Source: Candidatus Campbellbacteria bacterium
Lineage (GTDB): Bacteria; Patescibacteriota; Minisyncoccia; Phycocordibacterales; EsbW-18
Direction of reading: 5' to 3'
DNA: 64,000 nt
Assembly (NCBI GenBank): GCA_024653945.1
Contig: JANLIT010000003.1
Span: 162,936-226,935 of the forward strand
Position 1 is the first letter of the stretch. Each line of letters opens with the position of its first letter. A program made the translations under genes and the position numbers. Shown here piece by piece: positions 153-36,049 of the stretch. The notes below the pieces were generated by a model. The model searched no databases. It was not told where the DNA came from and saw nothing but the letters and a program-made list of their open reading frames with translations.

Positions 153-210
153 AAGATGCTTCTTCCAACTACCAACCTCTCACTCCCAACTTCTAACTTC
201 CACTACTTTG

Positions 211-484
211 AGCCGATGGCCGGGATTGAACCGGCGACCCCGTCCTTCGTATACACCCTCATTTAAAAACACACACGTATTGAGGGACTAGACTGTATCT
301 TGTACGTGCATAATAGCGACGCATCCCTTGTCAGTCGTTCGAGCCTCCACCTCATGTGGATGCTACGGTCTTGGCCTTGTGTGTAGGTTATTAACCGTTA
401 TTCGGGATACAAAACGCGCATTTCTACGCGAACGGGCAGAATTTCTCCACCATGGACGTGCTCTACCATCTGAGCTACATCGGC
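211..484 (-). tRNA. tRNA-Thr (anticodon GGU inferred) interrupted by a group I intron in the anticodon loop; exons 484..449 and 247..211
   Basis: 5' half (484..449) GCCGATG TA GCTC AGATGGTA GAGC A CGTCC AT-GGT and 3' half (247..211) AA GGACG GGGTC GCCGG TTCAATC CCGGC CATCGGC T pair perfectly (acceptor 7/7, anticodon stem 5/5, T-arm 5/5); halves separated by 201 nt. Confidence 0.75.
248..448 (-). ncRNA. group I intron (201 nt) inserted between tRNA positions 36/37
   Basis: 5' exon ends in U, intron ends in G (..GUAUACG) before exon AA; internal elements resembling group I P7 (GACUG / CAGUC, cf. conserved R-like UCGAACGACUGACA and S-like AAGAUACAGUCUAGUCC) and a P9 hairpin CCCUCA..UGAGGG just before omega-G. 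Confidence 0.65.
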
Positions 485-501: not shown

Positions 502-1107
502 TTACCTTATTTTCTTCATTTTTTCAATCTCACCGACCAGAATATCTCTGAGTTTTTTGTTGTTAAAATAAATGGTCAAAACCCCGTATTGTGTTTTCTT
601 CCGATACGTTCCCACACCAAGTGTCGGAGTAATAATAATTTTCTGAAATTGTTTTTCTTCTATGTTGAGATGTTTTTTCCAAAACTCTTTTGCATCCACG
701 GCTGACATGTCGCGAAAAACTTGAAGTCCGAAATGTAATTTTTTCTCATCTATTTCGTAGCACTTTTTTAGAAATAACAGAAACATTTTAATAAGATGTG
801 GGTCAGTATTACCAAGACGTACAGAATGTGTATTGCTTTTTGTGCCCTCGCCCCAATACAAACCAATTCCTAATCCAAATAAGAACCAATCTTTGTGTGA
901 CACAAGATTCTTACACATAAACGGATTTCCGTTTGGATTATATTTTATGTAGAGCGCGTCTGACCTATTACGACGCGGTAGTTTGTATGTATCCATCCAG
1001 TAACAAATCGTATGTGTTGAAACACCAATAATTTTTGAAATCTCTTGAAGAGACCTCTTGTCTTGAAAATAGAGGCGTTGTATATCTTTTTTTGCAAGAA
1101 AAACCAT
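502..1107 (-). CDS. LAGLIDADG-type homing endonuclease-like protein with N-terminal HTH
   Basis: 201 aa; motif FGLGIGLYWGEGTK matches the LAGLIDADG pattern (G-L-x-x-G-E-G-T); N-terminal HTH-like segment SLQEISKIIGVSTHTICYW; lies immediately upstream of the intron-containing tRNA. Confidence 0.45.
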   Translation of the reverse strand: MVFLAKKDIQRLYFQDKRSLQEISKIIGVSTHTICYWMDTYKLPRRNRSDALYIKYNPNGNPFMCKNLVSHKDWFLFGLGIGLYWGEGTKSNTHSVRLGNTDPHLIKMFLLFLKKCYEIDEKKLHFGLQVFRDMSAVDAKEFWKKHLNIEEKQFQKIIITPTLGVGTYRKKTQYGVLTIYFNNKKLRDILVGEIEKMKKIR

Positions 1108-2228: not shown

Positions 2229-2400
2229 AGGAATGAAAATAGTCGAGCCTTGTGTTCGGCTATTTTCGTTCCTTGTGTGTTTGTTTACAGTAAGGACTTG
2301 CAGATCGGAGCCAGTACTCAACTATTTGAGTGCTGGCGAGATGGGGCCGAGAACACTTAGGATTTTGGCGCAAATGCGCAAAAATCCTTAGAGATTCGTG

Positions 2401-2425
2401 GCCAAGTCCTGCCACCGACACAATT
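2401..2425 (+). repeat. duplicated tRNA 3'-end fragment (copy of 2206..2228, ..aagtcctgccaccgaca)
   Basis: 23/25 identity to the 3' end of the tRNA-Met at 2154..2228, no matching 5' half; resembles an att-site scar. Confidence 0.6.
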
Positions 2426-2490
2426 CGTTGATTTTGGGAGTATTTTTGGTATAGTATGACGACCTGGGGTTGTAAGTTGTAAGCAGTAGC

Positions 2491-2625
2491 TTGCGACTCC
2501 GGCGTTCGGGGAACATGGATGCTCACGCTCCTCATTTCCTCAAAGTCGAGAGAAAACAAAAACAAGCTTTTCTTTTCTCTCTTTCTTCGGAAATACGCGT
2601 TCGCATCTGCGTACAACCCTCATTT
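2491..2625. repeat. ~135-bp tRNA leader repeat, copy 2 (directly abuts tRNA-Asp)
   Basis: See copy 1. Confidence 0.8.
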
Positions 2626-2699
2626 GGAGTCGTAGCTCAACTGGTTAGAGCGCCTCCCTGTCACGGAGGAGGTTGCGGGTTCGAGTCCCGTCGATTCCG
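2626..2699 (+). tRNA. tRNA-Asp (anticodon GUC)
   Basis: GGAGTCG TA GCTC AACTGGTTA GAGC G CCTCC CTGTCAC GGAGG AGGTT GCGGG TTCGAGT CCCGT CGATTCC G. Confidence 0.85.
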
Positions 2700-2739: not shown

Positions 2740-2751
2740 CTTGTGTAGATA

Positions 2752-2779
2752 TCGAATCGGCGGGACTCGAACCGAGGAC
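2752..2779 (-). repeat. inverted degenerate copy of tRNA-Asp 3' end (T-arm + acceptor 3' strand)
   Basis: Reverse complement ggttcgagtcccgccgattcga matches tRNA-Asp 3' region ggttcgagtcccgtcgattccg; no intact cloverleaf (T-stem does not pair). Confidence 0.5.
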
Positions 2780-3014
2780 CGACGAAGCCCGCCGCAGGCG
2801 GCGGTCCGAGTGGGGGTCGATGGAGTGAGATTTTTGTGAGTTGTAGACAAAACAAAAATCCACGAGAGTGACCGAGTCCCTCTGAAAACTCTTTGTGACC
2901 GAGTCCCCTCCCTTGTAACCAACCCACACCTTCACGATATATATGAACGTGCGTTATACTGGTGACACCCACTTTTTATAAAGAAGCATTTTATAAATTA
3001 TTAATTATATAGAT

Positions 3015-3791
3015 ATGTATTCACAGCCAACATATTCGCGAGGTATGACAACGGGTGTTGTTGTCCTTGGTATGCTCTTGCTTGCAGGAGTTATTACCGT
3101 AGCCATTATTCGCGACAAAATTGTTGCTCAAGACTGGCAACAAGTAAGTATCACGGGAACAGGAAAAGTCCCCTACACACCCGACGAAGGTACAGTAACC
3201 CTCGGTGTGCATGTTGATAATGCAGTAACTGCACAAGCTGCACTCACACGATTGTCAGACACCATTGCAAAAGTTATTCCCGCGATCGTTGCACTTGGTA
3301 TTCCTGCAGAAGATATTTCAACACAAGCATACAATTTGTTTCCTCAATATTATTATCCTGAAGGAAAACCTGCCGTGATTAGTGGGTACAGCGCTGACCA
3401 ACAACTTTCCATCAAACTCACACTCCAAAATGGCGCCTCTGACACACGTATTGGAAAAGTTATTGAAACAGCAAGCGCACAAGGTGTAAACCAAGTTGTT
3501 GGTGTGGCGTTTACCGCATCAAATATTGAAGACCTCCAACAACAAGCGCTCCTTATTGCCATTGCAGACGCGAAAGGACGCGCGCAAGAAACCGCAGAGG
3601 CAGCGGGTGTTCGACTTAAAGAAGTTATTTCATGGTGGGAAAATCCAATTAGTGTTCCTGGCCTTGTTCCTCAGTATGGTGGAGAAATGGGTATGGGATA
3701 CGGTGGTGGAGATATGAAATCTTCCCCAATGGTTTCTTCTGGAACACAGGAAGTTATCGTGCAAGTAAACCTCAACTACTCGATAAAATAA
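3015..3791 (+). CDS. SIMPL/DUF541 family periplasmic protein (YggE-like)
   Basis: 258 aa; N-terminal TM anchor, then sequence typical of the SIMPL family (..QAYNLFPQYYYPEGKPAVISGYSADQQLSIKL..). Confidence 0.65.
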   Translation: MYSQPTYSRGMTTGVVVLGMLLLAGVITVAIIRDKIVAQDWQQVSITGTGKVPYTPDEGTVTLGVHVDNAVTAQAALTRLSDTIAKVIPAIVALGIPAEDISTQAYNLFPQYYYPEGKPAVISGYSADQQLSIKLTLQNGASDTRIGKVIETASAQGVNQVVGVAFTASNIEDLQQQALLIAIADAKGRAQETAEAAGVRLKEVISWWENPISVPGLVPQYGGEMGMGYGGGDMKSSPMVSSGTQEVIVQVNLNYSIK

Positions 3792-3837
3792 GGCTAGAAC
3801 TTGCCTTGTGCGTATCAATGCTCTATACTTCCCCACA

Positions 3838-3908
3838 GCGGGGTAGAGCAGTAGTAGCTCGTCAGGCTCATAACCTGAAGGTCGTAGGTGCAATTCCTAC
3901 CCCCGCAA
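3838..3908 (+). tRNA. tRNA-Met/Ile2 (anticodon CAU), elongator type
   Basis: GCGGGGT..GAGC AGTAGTA GCTC G TCAGG CTCATAA CCTGA AGGTC GTAGG TGCAATT CCTAC CCCCGC A; perfect anticodon stem, no GGG/CCC initiator signature. Confidence 0.75.
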
Positions 3909-3920
3909 CAAGAATAAAAA

Positions 3921-3946
3921 AACACCCCATAAGGGTGTTTTTTTAT
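3921..3946 (+). terminator. rho-independent terminator
   Basis: Hairpin acacccc ataa ggggtgt followed by TTTTTTT. Confidence 0.7.
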
Positions 3947-3950
3947 TCCT

Positions 3951-3990
3951 CCATCTGTGGTTTTTCAATAGTGAGTGTTTCAACACCCGC
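3951..3990. repeat. ~40-bp duplicate of the rmuC 3' end (matches 4664..4703)
   Basis: ccatctgtggtttttcaatagtgagtgtttcaacaccc vs ccatctgtggtttttcaatagagagtgtttcaacaccg; brackets the inserted ORF 4053..4595. Confidence 0.8.
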
Positions 3991-4052
3991 AATAAGTAAA
4001 TAAAGAAGAGGTGTGCCCATTAGACACACCTCTAGAGTTTCAAGAAGAGCGA

Positions 4053-4595
4053 TTACTGTATGTGCCACAAAATCTTGATTCCGATAAGGAACACCCCGCC
4101 TCCATCGCCTTGTCGAAGAAGTTCAGGAATAGTTCCTAGTCCAACCTCGCCGATAAGACACCTGAACGAAGTGAACGGCCGACAGCCATTTTGATTGAAT
4201 GAGGCCCACGAGTCGTGTGCTGAACCCACACGCTCTCCATTTACACACGGAGTTCCGTGTAACCTACACTCACGAAAGCTTTCTCCGTAAGCCACAACGT
4301 ATGAGCCAAAGGAACGAAGTTCTTTCCACTCACCCCGAGATTCTGCGATGTGCAGTTCCATCCCCACCAACCGTACAGTTGGAAATTCTTTACCAAAGTG
4401 CTCTTTTCTTTCAGCAACAGCCCTCCTAGCCGTTGTCTCCTCCTCAAACAACATAAATCCGTTTGAAGTGATGTTCTCTGAAAGAAATTCAACGCCGTCA
4501 GATACAGACGGTCCAAAGAACACCGCAAGTCCGTTTGGCGTTCGCGGATTCCTTTTCTTAGACATTACGATGGCAAAACCACTCTTATTTTGCAA
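4053..4595 (-). CDS. hypothetical protein on an inserted, higher-GC (~50%) segment
   Basis: 180 aa ORF with no recognisable motif; local GC above flanks; flanked by duplicated rmuC 3'-end sequence and adjacent to a tRNA. Confidence 0.5.
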   Translation of the reverse strand: MQNKSGFAIVMSKKRNPRTPNGLAVFFGPSVSDGVEFLSENITSNGFMLFEEETTARRAVAERKEHFGKEFPTVRLVGMELHIAESRGEWKELRSFGSYVVAYGESFRECRLHGTPCVNGERVGSAHDSWASFNQNGCRPFTSFRCLIGEVGLGTIPELLRQGDGGGVFLIGIKILWHIQ

Positions 4596-4654
4596 GGCAG
4601 TCCTCCTCTCAATTCATTATCTGGGGAAATAGTACACCAACGGGGTGAAACCGC

Positions 4655-5719
4655 CTACTCTTCCATCTGTGGTTTTTCAATAGAGAGTGTTTCAACACCG
4701 CCTGTTTCTCCAGCAATACGGACGACGTCTTTATCAATTTTTGCTAACTCTTTGTGTGCAGTGTTAAAATGATTGACTGTTGTTCCGAGTGCAGTTCCTA
4801 ACTTCATCATAAACACATTGTAGTTTGTAATATGACGACCTAATTCACCAACTCGCTTCTGAATTTCTTTTGCTTGATCTTCAATTTGTAAACTACGAAG
4901 TCCTTGCAACACTGTCTGCAAATATGCGAGGAATGATGTTGGTGAGACGATAATTACTTTCTTACCAAACGCATAGTCAATCAAATCGCGCGTGGATGTC
5001 TTCACTGCACCCACTTGATTGATGAGTAAATCGTAGTACACACCCTCAGACGGAATAAACATGAACGCAAACTCCATCGTATTTTCTGCAGGACGAACAT
5101 ACTTACTTGTTTCATCAATACGATTTTTAAGATCTTGTTTAAATGTTTTTTCATACTGCTCACGCTCGGCAGGATCACGGGCTTCAAGAATACGGTTGTA
5201 GTTTTCCAACGAAAATTTTGCATCAATTGGAACAATTTTATCTTTGACAAACACCACGGCATCAACAATTTCACCATTCGCAAATGCATACTGCATTTGA
5301 AACGTTCGTGGAGGAAGCACATTTTGCAAGACGCTCTCAAGATAATACTCACCCAAAATACCTCGTTGTTTTGGATTCTTAAGAATATCTTGGAGGTTTT
5401 GTAGTTGGTCGGCAAACGATACCACTTGTTTGTTTGTCTCATCAAGCTTCGTCAAACCCTCCGTCACCTCTTTGACGATACGCGTTGACTCAGACAGCTG
5501 AGAGCGCATAGAATCATGCATCGTTTTTGCACTCTCACCGAGCTTGGCGTCCACCGTTCGAGACATCTCATTGAGCTGCTGAAGGATGAGTGAGAGCCCT
5601 TTATCTTCCCCTACAGCCTCTTTTTTACGCATAGAGAGCAACACCTGCACACCTATAGCAGTAAGCACGAGGATAGACAATATAATCAATAAGATATCAG
5701 TCATATAGATAGTATACAC
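4655..5719 (-). CDS. rmuC: DNA recombination protein RmuC
   Basis: 354 aa; N-terminal TM, coiled-coil, and RmuC-type nuclease-like C-terminal region (..QRGILGEYYLESVL.., ..IVDAVVFVKDKIVPIDAKFSLENY..). Confidence 0.8.
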   Translation of the reverse strand: MYTIYMTDILLIILSILVLTAIGVQVLLSMRKKEAVGEDKGLSLILQQLNEMSRTVDAKLGESAKTMHDSMRSQLSESTRIVKEVTEGLTKLDETNKQVVSFADQLQNLQDILKNPKQRGILGEYYLESVLQNVLPPRTFQMQYAFANGEIVDAVVFVKDKIVPIDAKFSLENYNRILEARDPAEREQYEKTFKQDLKNRIDETSKYVRPAENTMEFAFMFIPSEGVYYDLLINQVGAVKTSTRDLIDYAFGKKVIIVSPTSFLAYLQTVLQGLRSLQIEDQAKEIQKRVGELGRHITNYNVFMMKLGTALGTTVNHFNTAHKELAKIDKDVVRIAGETGGVETLSIEKPQMEE

Positions 5720-32342: not shown

Positions 32343-32855
32343 CTACTGCCAATTAAATAACTCCTCGTGCAGTACAAAAGACCTATTCACCAACACATCA
32401 TTCCACGACACGGTAATGGTTGCTGAAATTTCCCTATCGCGGTCTTCTCCATATGACAGCGAAACTGTTCGTGTAAATTTGGTATCTACCCAACCATTCT
32501 CATATCCATACTTACCCGTGGCGTCGTCAAACTGTAGAGCGGGACAGACGGTCTCATTTACACCTTCACATTTCGTAATTGTATTTTGAGGAATATCTAC
32601 TGTGCACGAACTAGGACTAAAACAACCCTCAGGAAAAACAGAAAGCCAATCACCTGTACCGGTAATTGCACCACTGTCGCGTTTAAATCGTAAAAATTCA
32701 ACCCCCTCTTGTGCAAGATAATTCGCCACTATCTGGTCACGCGCAATACGTGCCGCTCGGAGACCTTGTGCCGCAAGAGACAGCGGAGCAACCACAGAGA
32801 CAATGAGCACCGCGATGGCAACAATAGTTTCAACGAAGGTGAACCCAGTATTCAT
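32343..32855 (-). CDS. type IV pilin-like protein (prepilin N-terminal G|FTFVE)
   Basis: MNTGFTFVETIVAIAVLIVSVV.. from ATG 32855; ORF-track extension to 32963 covers the conserved upstream repeat. Confidence 0.75.
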   Translation of the reverse strand: MNTGFTFVETIVAIAVLIVSVVAPLSLAAQGLRAARIARDQIVANYLAQEGVEFLRFKRDSGAITGTGDWLSVFPEGCFSPSSCTVDIPQNTITKCEGVNETVCPALQFDDATGKYGYENGWVDTKFTRTVSLSYGEDRDREISATITVSWNDVLVNRSFVLHEELFNWQ

Positions 32856-32965
32856 GTAGCATGTAGCATGTAGCATGTAGCAATTTGATTCTTGTATTTT
32901 GTTATTTGTTTTGTGCTTCATGGTACATGTTGTGTGTTTCATGGTACATGTTTCGTGTTTCATTC
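32856..32965. repeat. conserved pilin 5' region repeat, copy A, with (CATGTAG)n heptamer tandem repeats
   Basis: Near-identical ~90-110 bp blocks precede all three tandem pilin genes (32856..32965, 33509..33598, 34193..34287). Confidence 0.8.
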
Positions 32966-32971
32966 AAATTC

Positions 32972-33508
32972 CTATCTCTCCAAAAATCTCTGTGTTATGA
33001 GTGTCTGTAAATTGAAGGCTACCTCTGTTCTGGGTGTTTTTCCTGCAGTTCCACGCATAATAATAAGCACTCGTGGCTGTCCACCATCATTCTCAAGATA
33101 AAATTTGAGCGTAGTAACATTAACGTCTGGAGAAGTCACGGGAAGAAAACCCCCACCTTCTCGGTCGCGCATAATTTGTCCTCTACCCTCTACTGTTGTT
33201 GCTAATTTATACGTCACTGGTACGACGGGCGCGCTGTCGGTATCGTTGAAAGAAAATATTTCAGAGCCACTCGCACAGTCTGCAAGCGCATCACCTGGTG
33301 TTGCTGAACATGAATAACCTCCTCCCACACGAATGGCGCGCGTCATGGCATCAAGTGAAAAATTGAGATTGTTCATGACCGTTTTTGTTGCCTGCGCCTT
33401 TCTGTTTGCATCAAGCATGCTTATTACTGCAGTTGCAGCAACAATCATCACAATAGAAAAGATAAAAAGCGCAACAATCATTTCTACGAGCGTGAAACCA
33501 GCATTCAT
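32972..33508 (-). CDS. type IV pilin-like protein (G|FTLVE)
   Basis: MNAGFTLVEMIVALFIFSIV.. from ATG 33508. Confidence 0.75.
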   Translation of the reverse strand: MNAGFTLVEMIVALFIFSIVMIVAATAVISMLDANRKAQATKTVMNNLNFSLDAMTRAIRVGGGYSCSATPGDALADCASGSEIFSFNDTDSAPVVPVTYKLATTVEGRGQIMRDREGGGFLPVTSPDVNVTTLKFYLENDGGQPRVLIIMRGTAGKTPRTEVAFNLQTLITQRFLER

Positions 33509-33598
33509 GTGGCGTGTAGCATGTAGCATGTAGCAATTTGATTCTTGTTTTTTGTTATTTGTTTTGTGTTTCATGTTACATGTTGTGTGTTTCATTTA
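33509..33598. repeat. conserved pilin 5' region repeat, copy B
   Basis: See copy A. Confidence 0.8.
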
Positions 33599-34192
33599 AA
33601 TCCCCACCTCTTCTACCCCCGCTGGTGCTTCTTCCAATCGAGAAACTGAAATTTGTCCTGTTGATTCCACAACAACAAGCCGACTTCCTCCGCGTGGAGT
33701 AACTAATTCAATACCGACAGCACCAAGCGCTCTTGTTACACCACCTGAGACTGTGTTTATAATTGCATCTGGATTAGGGCGTTCAAATATAATATTCGCA
33801 TTTTCTAGCTCGCTGTCGCATGTTTTCGCGGTTGAAAAATCACATAAACGCGCCACGGTGAAACCACGTCCTAGCGTAAATGTTTCAAGGGTTTCTTCTG
33901 GGCTACTACTATATGCGTAATTACCGTCAAGATCGAGAAAGAGTTTGTATGTTGTGGCATCCGTGCCTGCTTCAAAATACACACCATATGCATTATCAAA
34001 ATTAGTACCCTGTCCCAGCACATGAATACCGTAATTTTGCGCCTGTCTAATAGAGAGCGCCACATCATATGCCACATCTGCAAGAAGCACCTCGTTATCA
34101 AACTGACTATTGCGCACAAGAACCACGGTGGAAATGAGGGCAAAAATACTCACCGTTACAATGAGTTCCATGAGGGTGAACCCGGCATTCAT
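33596..34192 (-). CDS. type IV pilin-like protein (G|FTLME)
   Basis: MNAGFTLMELIVTVSIFALI.. from ATG 34192. Confidence 0.75.
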   Translation of the reverse strand: MNAGFTLMELIVTVSIFALISTVVLVRNSQFDNEVLLADVAYDVALSIRQAQNYGIHVLGQGTNFDNAYGVYFEAGTDATTYKLFLDLDGNYAYSSSPEETLETFTLGRGFTVARLCDFSTAKTCDSELENANIIFERPNPDAIINTVSGGVTRALGAVGIELVTPRGGSRLVVVESTGQISVSRLEEAPAGVEEVGI

Positions 34193-34287
34193 GTAGCGCG
34201 TAGCATGTAGCATGTAGCAATTTGGTTCTTGTATTTTGTTATTTGTTTTGTGTTTCATGTTACATGTTTTGTGGTACATGTTTCGTG
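34193..34287. repeat. conserved pilin 5' region repeat, copy C
   Basis: See copy A. Confidence 0.8.
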
Positions 34288-35782: not shown

Positions 35783-35935
35783 AATTTTTTTGCGAACTAA
35801 TAAATCGCTTACGTTAATAAAGCCCTTTTATTATAGGCGCTATTAGGAAAAGCGGAAAGAGCCCTGTGTATAACTCTTCACTTGCCTTTATTTTCAAGGG
35901 CACGCGTCCATTTCTCCTGAAATAGCGCTCGCATT

Positions 35936-36049
35936 CCCGATTTGTCCCTGTCAACAGGGCTACAAATCGCAATCTTTTAGGGCTCGGCCTCTTCGGCCTC
36001 CCGATTTGTCCCTGTCAACAGGGCTACAAATCGCAATCCTTTAGGGCTC
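35936..36049. promoter_or_regulatory. two tandem ~50-bp direct repeats (35936..35985 and 36000..36049) in the pilA upstream region, each carrying hairpin ccctgtcaacaggg
   Basis: cccgatttgtccctgtcaacagggctacaaatcgcaatcYtttagggctc repeated with a 14-bp spacer; a + strand-oriented terminator-like hairpin (36076..36110, ccgaacttttgctctgcaaaagttcgg+TTTTTG) follows. Confidence 0.5.

Follow-up and report, generated by a model that had tools for sequence, protein, structure and literature searches.

A single-gene cassette flanked by two copies of the rmuC 3' end at a variable tRNA-Met locus in a Campbellbacteria genome

Introduction

The hallmarks of transposons and insertion sequences are a transposase, terminal inverted repeats and a target duplication of 2–15 bp. 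Another type of island, to which e14/phage 21 in the icd gene of E. coli belongs, integrates into the 3' end of its target gene, usually with a gene for a tyrosine or serine recombinase at one end of the island. In tDNA islands (Islander, PMC4383910) and dusA islands (PMC4482086), the displaced original end of the target marks the far boundary of the island. Flanking duplications are also produced by homologous recombination: a single crossover of a circle that carries a truncated lacZ fragment leaves duplications of 109–950 bp (PMC3240628).

The 64-kb window described here (the whole stretch of DNA that was analysed, in which all positions are counted) comes from a metagenome-assembled genome (MAG) of Candidatus Campbellbacteria, a CPR episymbiont with a genome of about 0.8 Mb. 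It contains a single-gene cassette, apparently inserted, at the 3' end of the recombination gene rmuC, which as far as we know has never been reported as an att locus.

Results

Organization of the locus

The locus lies between two core genes that encode a SIMPL/DUF541 protein and RmuC (Table 1). The Pfam match confirms the identity of the minus-strand reading frame that the first-pass annotation had called rmuC. Along its length, this gene is 84.8% identical in nucleotide sequence to its counterpart in L089 and 80.9% identical to that in L003 (L numbers denote loci of related genomes, P numbers denote proteins). The corresponding locus is bordered by a SIMPL ortholog in L001, L002, L004, L006, L008 and L089 as well. 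In the window, the SIMPL gene, a promoter, a tRNA-Met gene, a terminator (T) and a displaced copy of the rmuC end (copy B) form a single unbroken and compact arrangement, and the tRNA gene and hairpin are indeed next to the insert, where they had been placed initially. Terminator T ends tRNA-Met on one strand and comes after the displaced rmuC end on the other. Its folding energy is −20.5 kcal/mol on the plus strand and −23.8 kcal/mol on the minus strand (z −8.6 and −6.7, respectively), and no shuffled sequence equals either value. An Rfam scan of the region otherwise gave only Phe_leader and cow-rumen-3, which score far under their gathering thresholds and are chance matches.

Table 1. Features of the rmuC–tRNA-Met–SIMPL locus, in window coordinates.
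Feature	Position	Strand	Basis and remarks
SIMPL/DUF541 gene	3015..3791	+	Pfam PF04402, 9.2e-41; core gene bordering the hot spot on the left
tRNA-Met promoter, TTGCCT-17-TATACT	3801..3829	+	Promoter scan; 8–9 nt past the SIMPL stop codon
tRNA-Met(CAT)	3837..3909	+	ARAGORN; Rfam tRNA, 62.4 bits
Bidirectional hairpin terminator T	3912..3948	.	Perfect 16-nt arms
Repeat copy B, displaced non-coding rmuC end (GVETLTIEKPQMEE + TAA)	3943..3987	-	14 codons and stop still readable
Cassette intrinsic terminator T' (12-bp stem, then TCTTTATTT)	4007..4033	-	Scan
ORF180	4053..4595	-	List of open reading frames; 180 aa from a TTG start
Shine-Dalgarno sequence GAGGAGG	4602..4608	-	Sequence reading; 6 nt ahead of the TTG codon
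Putative −10-like box TACTAT	4629..4634	-	Compare upstream of the homolog: TACTAT in L001, TAGTAT in L002
Repeat copy A, functional rmuC end (GVETLSIEKPQMEE + TAG)	4655..4699	-	Peptide equals the RmuC C-terminus of L089
rmuC, intact	4655..5719	-	Pfam RmuC, 7.8e-57, residues 47–334; right core flank

The duplicated end of rmuC

The last 14 codons of rmuC and its stop codon, 45 nt in all, are present twice in direct orientation with 41 of 45 positions identical (the repeat search itself returned 3944–3987 and 4656–4699, 41/44 identical, at a spacing of 712). Across the 64-kb window, a 38-nt core pattern of the repeat has two exact matches against an expectation of 0.00 (100 shuffles), and there is no third copy. 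The duplication noticed at first sight as 40 bp with 38 identities is thus borne out as slightly longer and non-random. Its interpretation as a target duplication is not supported: 45 bp is much too long for a duplication of the transposase type and fits a recombination identity segment.

The reading frame of rmuC runs intact through copy A and the Pfam match is full-length, that is, the gene is regenerated at the insert. The TAA codon of copy B falls within an arm of the terminator T hairpin. The two copies differ by a conservative first-position change (Ser/Thr), two synonymous changes in Glu codons and TAG/TAA, so that three of the four differences are in third positions. Copy A has the Ser and TAG found in L089, and copy B has the Thr and TAA found in the L003 ortholog. 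To judge from these four sites only, the copies look like two alleles and not like a gene end with its decaying dead copy.

Anatomy and composition of the cassette

The 667 bp between the repeats make up a self-contained unit with a putative −10 box, a ribosome-binding site, one open reading frame (ORF180, the single 180-aa frame recognized from the start) and a terminator of its own. The TTG start codon is backed by the GAGGAGG motif and by conservation of residues 1–10 in two homologs (P0002 and P0003), which keep this N-terminus; the GenBank version of the protein (P0001) has 170 residues and starts from ATG. TACTAT is a putative promoter element of ORF180, upstream of which no −35 box is left because the end of rmuC occupies that spot. 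The cassette terminator T' folds with −22.5 kcal/mol (z −4.1). There is no terminator between rmuC and ORF180 (folding z 0.0), so the two genes can be co-transcribed. No inverted repeats were found at the ends of the insert, and searches of Pfam, PHROGs, NCBIfam and PADLOC revealed no recombinase, integrase, transposase or partner gene within it or beside it, where SIMPL and RmuC are encoded on either side.

The GC content of ORF180 is 47.7% compared to 44.4% for the window, which corresponds to a z of +0.94 among the 48 open reading frames of at least 150 aa; four of these 48, ORF180 included, are at least as GC-rich. Its synonymous codon usage has a z of −1.2, and GC, GC3 and codon likelihood are all within about 1.2 standard deviations of the window genes. 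The elevated GC (~50%) reported in the first-pass annotation is not borne out, and with this ordinary composition, compositional foreignness of ORF180 was rejected.

A variable gap with an inverted tRNA module

The content of the gap between SIMPL, tRNA-Met and rmuC changes between close relatives: it can be ORF180, an M23-peptidase-like gene (judged by eye from its translation), an unrelated 384 bp, mini-elements or nothing. This gap is a tRNA-linked variable hot spot in the Campbellbacteria lineage, and ORF180 is an accessory gene that belongs to it. ORF180 is absent from the locus in seven relatives (L004, L006, L008, L010, L011, L089 and L090), among them the closest complete genome (L089) and L006, whose RmuC nevertheless shares 95.7% identity with the RmuC of the ORF180-bearing L002. 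Two more distant genomes, L001 and L002, have a homolog with 53–59% identity in the same gap but at another position and in another orientation. In both, ORF180 and tRNA-Met are convergent neighbours, as in the window, and both copies come with a 350-bp upstream region and a terminator context that the window does not have. The adjoining SIMPL proteins of the same genomes are 56–59% identical; such equal divergence would fit vertical descent and transfer between relatives alike. The initial description of ORF180 as foreign holds only in part: the gene is absent from seven relatives, yet its composition is native and a homolog occupies the L001/L002 gap. A recent arrival from afar is not supported, as that homolog sits in the same gap and has diverged like SIMPL.

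The tRNA-Met gene is on the rmuC strand in L002/L007, L003, L004, L006, L008–L011 and L089, and apparently also in L090, where the tRNA is cut by the contig end. The order in ten related loci is rmuC → tRNA-Met → terminator ← SIMPL, and the tRNA-Met promoter of the window aligns with a promoter located after the rmuC stop codon in L089 and L003. The promoter–tRNA-Met–terminator module of the window (~150 bp) is inverted in place relative to these relatives. Since tRNA-Met is on the rmuC strand in all relatives, the window carries, in addition to the insert, a tRNA flip that had not been foreseen. The empty site anticipated earlier, with rmuC followed by the tRNA as oriented in the window, was not encountered: relatives that keep the neighbourhood have a same-strand tRNA-Met. 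The seven insert-free relatives carry the module the other way round; an exact empty site, with the end of rmuC joined to T, is one that we infer. In L089, a displaced tRNA 3' fragment and a terminator with an ACACC stem, which resembles T of the window, adjoin SIMPL.

The same genomes contain many elements of ~190 nt at tRNA 3' ends, flanked by 16–20-nt duplications that begin in the T-loop, with ends matched to each target tRNA. One tRNA nearby carries a 201-nt insertion in its anticodon loop. These mini-elements and the tRNA with the 201-nt insertion are more unusual material than the ORF180 cassette.

The ORF180 protein family

ORF180 has no matches in Pfam, PHROGs, PADLOC and NCBIfam, in agreement with the initial impression of a protein without a recognizable domain, and Pfam gave no meaningful match for any of the 15 family members. 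The family is restricted to CPR bacteria and comprises about 15 representatives (sequence clusters) in 1.84 billion. The gene is under purifying selection, with a dN/dS of 0.14 between the L001 and L002 homologs. An hhalign comparison of the N-terminal and C-terminal halves gives a probability of 93.7%, and the protein is predicted to be a pseudo-dimer that arose by internal duplication and consists of two homologous β-hairpin/helix modules.

The AlphaFold model computed from an alignment of eight sequences is confident (pLDDT 83.6) and was used here; with three sequences the model was unusable (pLDDT 38.8). The remote-homology search and structure prediction proposed earlier for ORF180 yielded no relative in the PDB by sequence or fold: the eight-sequence model has no structural counterpart in either the PDB or BFVD, and whole-family and N-half profiles found chance-level PDB sequences only (FGF1 with an E-value of 0.27, and neuraminidase). 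One Glu is near-invariant in the family, whereas no Cys, His or Asp is invariant throughout it; an AHDSW motif is limited to one subfamily. It is a guess that ORF180 might bind ligands or nucleic acids instead of acting as an enzyme or toxin.

Several apparent similarities were rejected. The RNase H1 hybrid-binding domain aligns with an hhalign probability of 19% over 18 columns, and the comparison sequences were approximate. A 'GYV..x10..IYG' pattern in ORF180 bears a superficial likeness to GIY-YIG that has no Pfam support. P0012 (2307 aa) is a near-perfect tandem-repeat PdaC protein whose repeats inflate its score.

The neighbours of family members differ per genome (rmuC, SIMPL, PolX/PIN, PPDK/L16 or orphan genes). 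Flanking repeats comparable to those of the window were not found around other members: the repeats at L084 are similar terminators, and those at L088 are paralog fragments.

Origin of the arrangement

If one repeat and the 667-bp insert are removed in silico, rmuC, the terminator, tRNA-Met and SIMPL close up into a compact locus, and this tidy empty site makes an insertion that duplicated the rmuC end the simplest reading. The anatomy thus agrees with the earlier proposal of an insertion at the rmuC 3' end, with copy A keeping the gene and copy B on the terminator. To the fuller sequence of events, in which the module flip was followed by insertion of the cassette, likely through a single crossover, we give about an even chance. 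The promoter–tRNA-Met–terminator module would first have flipped between the two convergent core genes, which would place the tRNA terminator directly next to the end of rmuC. Recombination would then have brought the self-contained cassette into the final 45 bp of rmuC, most likely by a Campbell-type single crossover with DNA of a close relative that was either circular or anchored. If the donor DNA carried its own copy of the 45 bp, the homology would be duplicated on either side of the insert, rmuC would be restored by copy A, and the old end would be shifted, as copy B, beside the terminator. The direct repeats would also permit precise loss of the cassette, which would leave ...ATTGCTGGAGAAACAGGC joined straight to copy B and the terminator. 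A length of 45 bp is near the lower limit for a RecA-dependent crossover, and this counts against the crossover. No donor with the order rmuC → ORF180 is known, rmuC gives no signal of a mosaic donor-derived segment at the available divergence, and exact-protein look-ups found no circular form or empty-site variant of the strain.

ORF180 could instead be ancestral in the gap, as in L001 and L002 (rmuC → tRNA-Met → ... ← ORF180 ← SIMPL), with the whole [tRNA-Met + ORF180] block inverted and copy B a product of secondary repair or duplication. A single event would then account for both the flipped tRNA and the flipped gene, and the divergence of ORF180, equal to that of SIMPL in the same genomes, the −10 box common to the window, L001 and L002, and the native composition would all fit vertical inheritance. 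We nevertheless consider such a history unlikely. Copy B is inside the would-be block, between two terminators and in direct orientation, a placement that neither recombination between inverted repeats nor inversion by staggered breaks explains; a simple inversion of either kind was rejected as the sole mechanism on these grounds. Moreover, the closest relatives, L089 (a complete genome) and L090, are without the gene, so that vertical descent needs several independent losses, and the upstream region and terminator context of the L001/L002 copies are missing from the window. Somewhat less probable still is a miniature integrative element for which the 45-bp repeat is the att identity segment and the tyrosine or serine recombinase is encoded elsewhere. 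A regenerated target with the displaced fragment at the end of the insert is the hallmark of such islands (PMC4383910, PMC4482086), and the many ~190-nt insertions at tRNA 3' ends suggest that site-specific insertion is active in the lineage. Against this stand the lack of a recombinase in or beside the insert, the lack of integrase or transposase similarity in ORF180, the lack of an obvious inverted core-site pair around a spacer within the 45-bp segment, the other family members without comparable flanking repeats, and the fact that the cassette and the tRNA mini-elements share no sequence. A transposon or insertion sequence was rejected, as there is no transposase similarity, no inverted repeats at the ends and a duplication of 45 bp.

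The first-pass annotation also raised the possibility of a toxin or defence module, i.e. of ORF180 as selfish cargo acting as a single-gene toxin or against phages. Its patchy occurrence among close relatives would suit this role, one distant family member (L084) lies near a tmRNA gene, in a GC-rich island of 4.3 kb made up of small orphan genes, and another adjoins a PIN-domain gene. The role is very unlikely, however, as PADLOC, PHROG and NCBIfam are negative for ORF180 and Pfam for all 15 family members, there is no conserved antitoxin or immunity partner, neighbours differ in every genome examined, the family has none of the invariant residues noted above as missing (Cys, His, Asp), and the fold matches no known toxin in the PDB or BFVD. 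We give the least credence of all to an assembly artefact, in which the contig would join population variants and both the duplicate and the flipped tRNA would be misassembled. The source is a MAG, no second contig is known that encodes an identical RmuC or SIMPL protein, and the contig of the relative L003 breaks exactly within tRNA-Met. Yet the repeat copies have 4 mismatches in 45 positions and do not reach the length of usual assembly k-mers, every junction is clean and functional (the rmuC frame is unbroken, a ribosome-binding site is present and the terminators are sensibly placed), and the contig spans 228 kb.

Discussion

With its insertion at the rmuC end as the favoured reading, the locus is a clean, base-resolved case of single-gene exchange at convergent gene ends in a 0.8-Mb episymbiont genome, and it includes the in-place flip of a tRNA gene. 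For specialists in structural genomics and CPR bacteria, ORF180 offers a tiny, internally duplicated orphan family whose confident model is unmatched by solved or viral structures. A far bolder proposal, and a long shot, is that the family is a passenger or an agent of integrase-free mobility of single-gene cassettes in CPR bacteria, with ORF180 as a new recombination or targeting factor. If this were true, cassettes would insert within a gene's final few dozen bases, ahead of a terminator, and rebuild that end, and there could be a mechanistic link to the ~190-nt structured mini-elements at tRNA 3' ends.

Compared to known systems, the cassette resembles free-standing homing-endonuclease genes in that one small gene, equipped with expression signals of its own, is distributed patchily between conserved genes of close relatives. 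Unlike them, ORF180 has no LAGLIDADG, GIY-YIG, HNH or PD-(D/E)xK signature (Pfam, PHROG, PDB), and homing does not yield 45-bp direct repeats. The likeness to islands at gene 3' ends is closer: the insert is bracketed by direct repeats of the target gene 3' end, and rmuC stays intact with a near-identical replacement end supplied by the insert. Unlike such islands, the insert is 667 bp long, carries one gene and has no integrase or other recombinase; no sign was found that the same rmuC site is used for insertion in other genomes.

The locus also shares with Campbell-type, homology-anchored insertions a short homologous stretch that is directly duplicated on both sides, in copies that differ as alleles do. 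Unlike the lacZ cases (PMC3240628), the homology is only 45 bp long and the event is inferred from one genome. Non-homologous DNA anchored by short homology is likewise the pattern of homology-facilitated illegitimate recombination. As in integration hot spots at core genes, often beside tRNA genes, the flanks (SIMPL, tRNA-Met and rmuC) are constant while the content varies; the differences are a very small scale (0.1–1 kb) and the inversion of the tRNA module itself in the window. The ORF180 unit is an accessory cassette, its site is a tRNA-linked hot spot, and the recombination that it represents is of a familiar, already understood kind.

Structure of the rmuC–ORF180 locus

The product of ORF180, a 180-aa open reading frame (GenBank NUW02_02705), is encoded on a 228-kb contig of a Candidatus Campbellbacteria (CPR/Patescibacteria) MAG, between the true 3' end of rmuC (copy A) and a displaced duplicate of it (copy B). 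The two copies are identical at 41 of 44 positions in a repeat search (spacing 712) and at 41 of 45 when read in frame, and their 38-nt core gives two exact matches versus 0.00 expected. The rmuC duplication described in the first-pass annotation is thus real; the 64-kb window contains no third copy. Both copies read as 14 codons and a stop, GVETLSIEKPQMEE-TAG in copy A and GVETLTIEKPQMEE-TAA in copy B, where the TAA falls within an arm of the tRNA-Met terminator T. They differ by one Ser/Thr replacement, two synonymous Glu codons and the stop. Copy A is similar to the closest complete genome (CP064977.1, locus L089) and copy B to relative locus L003; from four sites, this is a weak hint that the copies may have been alleles from different cells before the event.

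Features of the window and related loci
Feature	Position	Strand	Evidence or remark
SIMPL/DUF541 gene	3015–3791	+	Pfam 9.2e-41
Sigma-70-like promoter	3801–3829		promoter scan
tRNA-Met(CAT)	3837–3909	+	
Hairpin terminator T	3912–3948		perfect 16-bp arms
Repeat copy B	3943–3987		
Second intrinsic terminator T'	4007–4033	-	
ORF180	4053–4595	-	180 aa
Ribosome-binding site of ORF180	4602–4608		GAGGAGG
Box upstream of ORF180	4629–4634		TACTAT
Repeat copy A	4655–4699		true 3' end of rmuC
rmuC	4655–5719	-	Pfam RmuC 7.8e-57
Mini-element	2229–2422		after tRNA-Met 2154–2228
Degenerate mini-element	2745–2885		after tRNA-Asp 2626–2701
Mini-element, L089	6821–6975	-	
Mini-elements, L004	6207–6425, 7474–7620		
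Mini-element, L006	5174–5367		
Mini-element, L007	5182–5446		
Mini-element, L010	1133–1314		
Mini-elements, L017, L019, L073			
163-nt direct repeat	2018–2180, 2490–2652		90% identical
51-nt repeat	35935–36049		two copies, 98% identical, 64 nt apart
138-nt repeat	32805–34279		three copies, 84–85% identical, ~670 nt apart
Interrupted tRNA	210–484	-	201-nt anticodon-loop insertion
201-aa ORF	502–1107	-	

ORF180 and its family

ORF180 is a real gene, and its orphan family is tiny. In 5.8 billion proteins, word-indexed searching brought up just two relatives, P0002 (53% identity) and P0003 (62%); 1.84 billion cluster representatives, searched exhaustively with an HMM, yielded 15 proteins at E ≤ 1e-3, all 165–193 aa long except P0003 (101 aa, a truncated gene call) and one discarded outlier. 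Residues 1–10, upstream of the annotated ATG, are conserved, which supports a TTG start, and dN/dS between the homologs in relative loci L001 and L002 is 0.14. The gene carries no mark of compositional foreignness: its GC content is 47.7%, the window's 44.4% (z +0.94 within a set of 48 long ORFs), and its GC3 (z +0.8) and synonymous-codon likelihood (z -1.2) against the same ORFs are likewise unremarkable. The higher-GC, foreign ORF of the first-pass annotation is not what these values describe.

As had been noted, ORF180 has no recognisable domain: no family member matches Pfam, and the query finds nothing in PHROGs, PADLOC or NCBIfam. Nothing positive supports the toxin or defence module proposed earlier. 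The remote-homology search and structure prediction suggested alongside that proposal linked it to no known structure: family profiles had no match among PDB sequences and the AlphaFold model, though good (8-sequence alignment, pLDDT 83.6, pTM 0.80), had no credible Foldseek match in PDB or BFVD. The N-terminal third is homologous to the C-terminal part (hhalign 93.7%, E 1.9e-7), and in each module a helix comes after G-[FY]-x-[IV]-V ... [FY]-G-P ... N-G-x-x-x-F; ORF180 is thus a pseudo-dimer of two modules. A likeness to GIY-YIG was tested and rejected, as was one to the hybrid-binding domain of RNase H1 (19% probability).

There is no terminator between rmuC and ORF180, so the two have probably been co-transcribed since the insertion. 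L001 and L002 do not share this link, no conserved partner gene was found across the members' contexts, and no repeats comparable to copies A and B flank the other members.

The locus in relatives

Eighty loci were fetched with RmuC as probe and annotated. In every close relative retaining the neighbourhood (L003, L004, L006, L007, which is the same as L002, and L008–L011), rmuC is followed by tRNA-Met on the same strand, and SIMPL converges on them where the contig continues. In CP064977.1 (rmuC 84.8% nucleotide identity, SIMPL 77% amino acid identity), rmuC precedes promoter–tRNA-Met, T, a ~150-nt mini-element that closes with a duplicated tRNA 3' end, an ACACC-stem terminator and the convergent SIMPL. 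By these orders, the ancestral compact locus was rmuC -> [P-tRNA-Met-T] <- SIMPL. The module in the window aligns base for base with that of the relatives, with its flanks swapped: the promoter starts 8–9 nt past the SIMPL stop, and T is fused to the rmuC end of copy B. The promoter–tRNA-Met–terminator module has thus been flipped in place.

The locus lacks ORF180 in L004, L006, L008, L010, L011, L089 and L090. None of these shows exactly the empty site predicted for the window, with the rmuC end fused to T: their tRNA-Met module has the opposite orientation. In L004, a 324-aa gene, M23-peptidase-like by eye from its translation, lies between rmuC and the tRNA. L006, which lacks ORF180, and L002, which has a homolog, share 95.7% identical RmuC and differ by a replacement (~1.07 kb in one, 0.38 kb in the other) distal to two shared mini-elements. 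In L001 and L002, the homolog lies between SIMPL and a tRNA-Met array, where it runs the same way as SIMPL and converges on the tRNA. Compared with these loci, ORF180 (53–59% identity) and SIMPL (56–59%) of the window are equally divergent; RmuC is 79% identical. Just downstream of the homolog's terminator, both loci carry a conserved palindrome, CCTGCCTGCCGGCAGGCAGG (L001 1630–1665, L002 2150–2175), which interrupts the outermost tRNA-Met 3'-end duplicate and is common to both although their ORF copies are only 59% identical.

Distant members occupy unrelated contexts: a 4.3-kb island in L084 (3200–7500; 45–57% GC in a CPR genome of 29–40% GC), a site adjoining PolX and a PIN gene in L085, and an archaeal-type neighbourhood in L086. 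The L084 island is near a tmRNA gene and consists of small orphan genes with their own promoters and similar GACCGC...GCGGTC terminators.

Elements associated with neighbouring tRNAs

Non-coding elements of ~130–200 nt form a family located directly behind tRNA genes. Their order is an own terminator, an inverted copy of the local tRNA T-loop/3' end, two hairpins (conserved core GAG-N-GGGG-YCG / CACTTAGG), a GTGACCGA motif and a terminal 16–20-nt direct duplicate of the local tRNA 3' end that begins in the T-loop. Compared with the orthologous tRNA-Met of CP064977.1, the window copy is cleanly inserted and measures 193 nt. Its core shares ~90% identity with a copy that this genome carries at another tRNA-Met, and its ends match the local tRNA. 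Such a 3'-end duplicate accompanies 8 of the 43 tRNAs encoded in the retrieved loci, the consensus fold displays compensatory changes in 16 of 34 pairs, and Rfam contains no match. These could be miniature integrative elements or structured RNAs with target-matched ends; we know of no described equivalent.

The degenerate copy behind tRNA-Asp repeats 20 nt of the tRNA 3' end in inverted orientation (2754–2773, 95% complementary to 2678–2697), continues with a core, GAGTGGGGGTCG...GTGACCGAGTCCC, and folds like the other copies. The 163-nt repeat covers the sequence ahead of tRNA-Met and tRNA-Asp together with the first bases of each gene, contains a GAGAGAAAACAAAA...TTTTCTTTTCTCTC hairpin and is possibly a promoter or leader common to both; the upstream layout in CP064977.1 is similar. 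Two further repeats lie elsewhere in the window (51 and 138 nt).

The interrupted tRNA, missed by the default scan and found by ARAGORN with intron search, can be read as Thr(GGT) or as Arg(ACG), according to how the insertion is positioned. Its CP064977.1 ortholog, tRNA-Thr(GGT) (L089 4163–4238), is uninterrupted, and the region has no Rfam group I intron match at E ≤ 1. The nearby 201-aa ORF has an N-terminal HTH matching phage 'HNH endonuclease' PHROGs (2.5e-7) and, by eye, a LAGLIDADG-like stretch 'GLGIGLYWGEGTK'. It is compositionally the most deviant gene nearby (34.7% GC), and the corresponding CP064977.1 gap between tRNA-Thr and a DUF975-like membrane gene is only ~110 bp. As a foreign or homing-type gene, it is a stronger candidate than ORF180.

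Proposed origin of the insertion

SIMPL, promoter, tRNA, T and copy B form one continuous, sensible arrangement, and deleting 712 bp (one repeat and the insert) puts the rmuC end back on T. Together, these make a flip followed by an insertion the most economical reading: the tRNA module would have flipped, and the cassette would then have inserted, duplicating the 45-bp rmuC end. The earlier view of a small insertion bracketed by this duplicate fits the same reading. Inversion of a block of tRNA-Met and ORF180 from an L002-like ancestor would account for the two orientations in a single event, yet a directly oriented copy B within the block does not follow from it, and it is improbable.

At 45 bp, the duplication is longer than a transposase would leave. 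Because no recombinase gene lies inside or adjoining the insert, we favour, at roughly even chances, homology-anchored recombination with DNA of a close relative. The same absence speaks against an integrase acting in trans, which we rate below the block inversion, even though integrase-borne islands that rebuild their target gene formally yield such a duplication (PMC4383910, PMC4482086). An assembly artefact is unlikely. The window thus holds a genuine, neatly resolved small insertion in a tRNA-linked hot spot, whose cargo belongs to a very rare orphan family. The neighbouring tRNA-associated elements are more unusual than this event, which belongs to an already known kind. It shares a duplicated gene end with target-rebuilding islands, but unlike them has no recombinase in or beside it. 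With its duplicated short homology, it resembles the lacZ case, in which experiments showed that one crossover within a short stretch of shared sequence yields such a duplication (PMC3240628).
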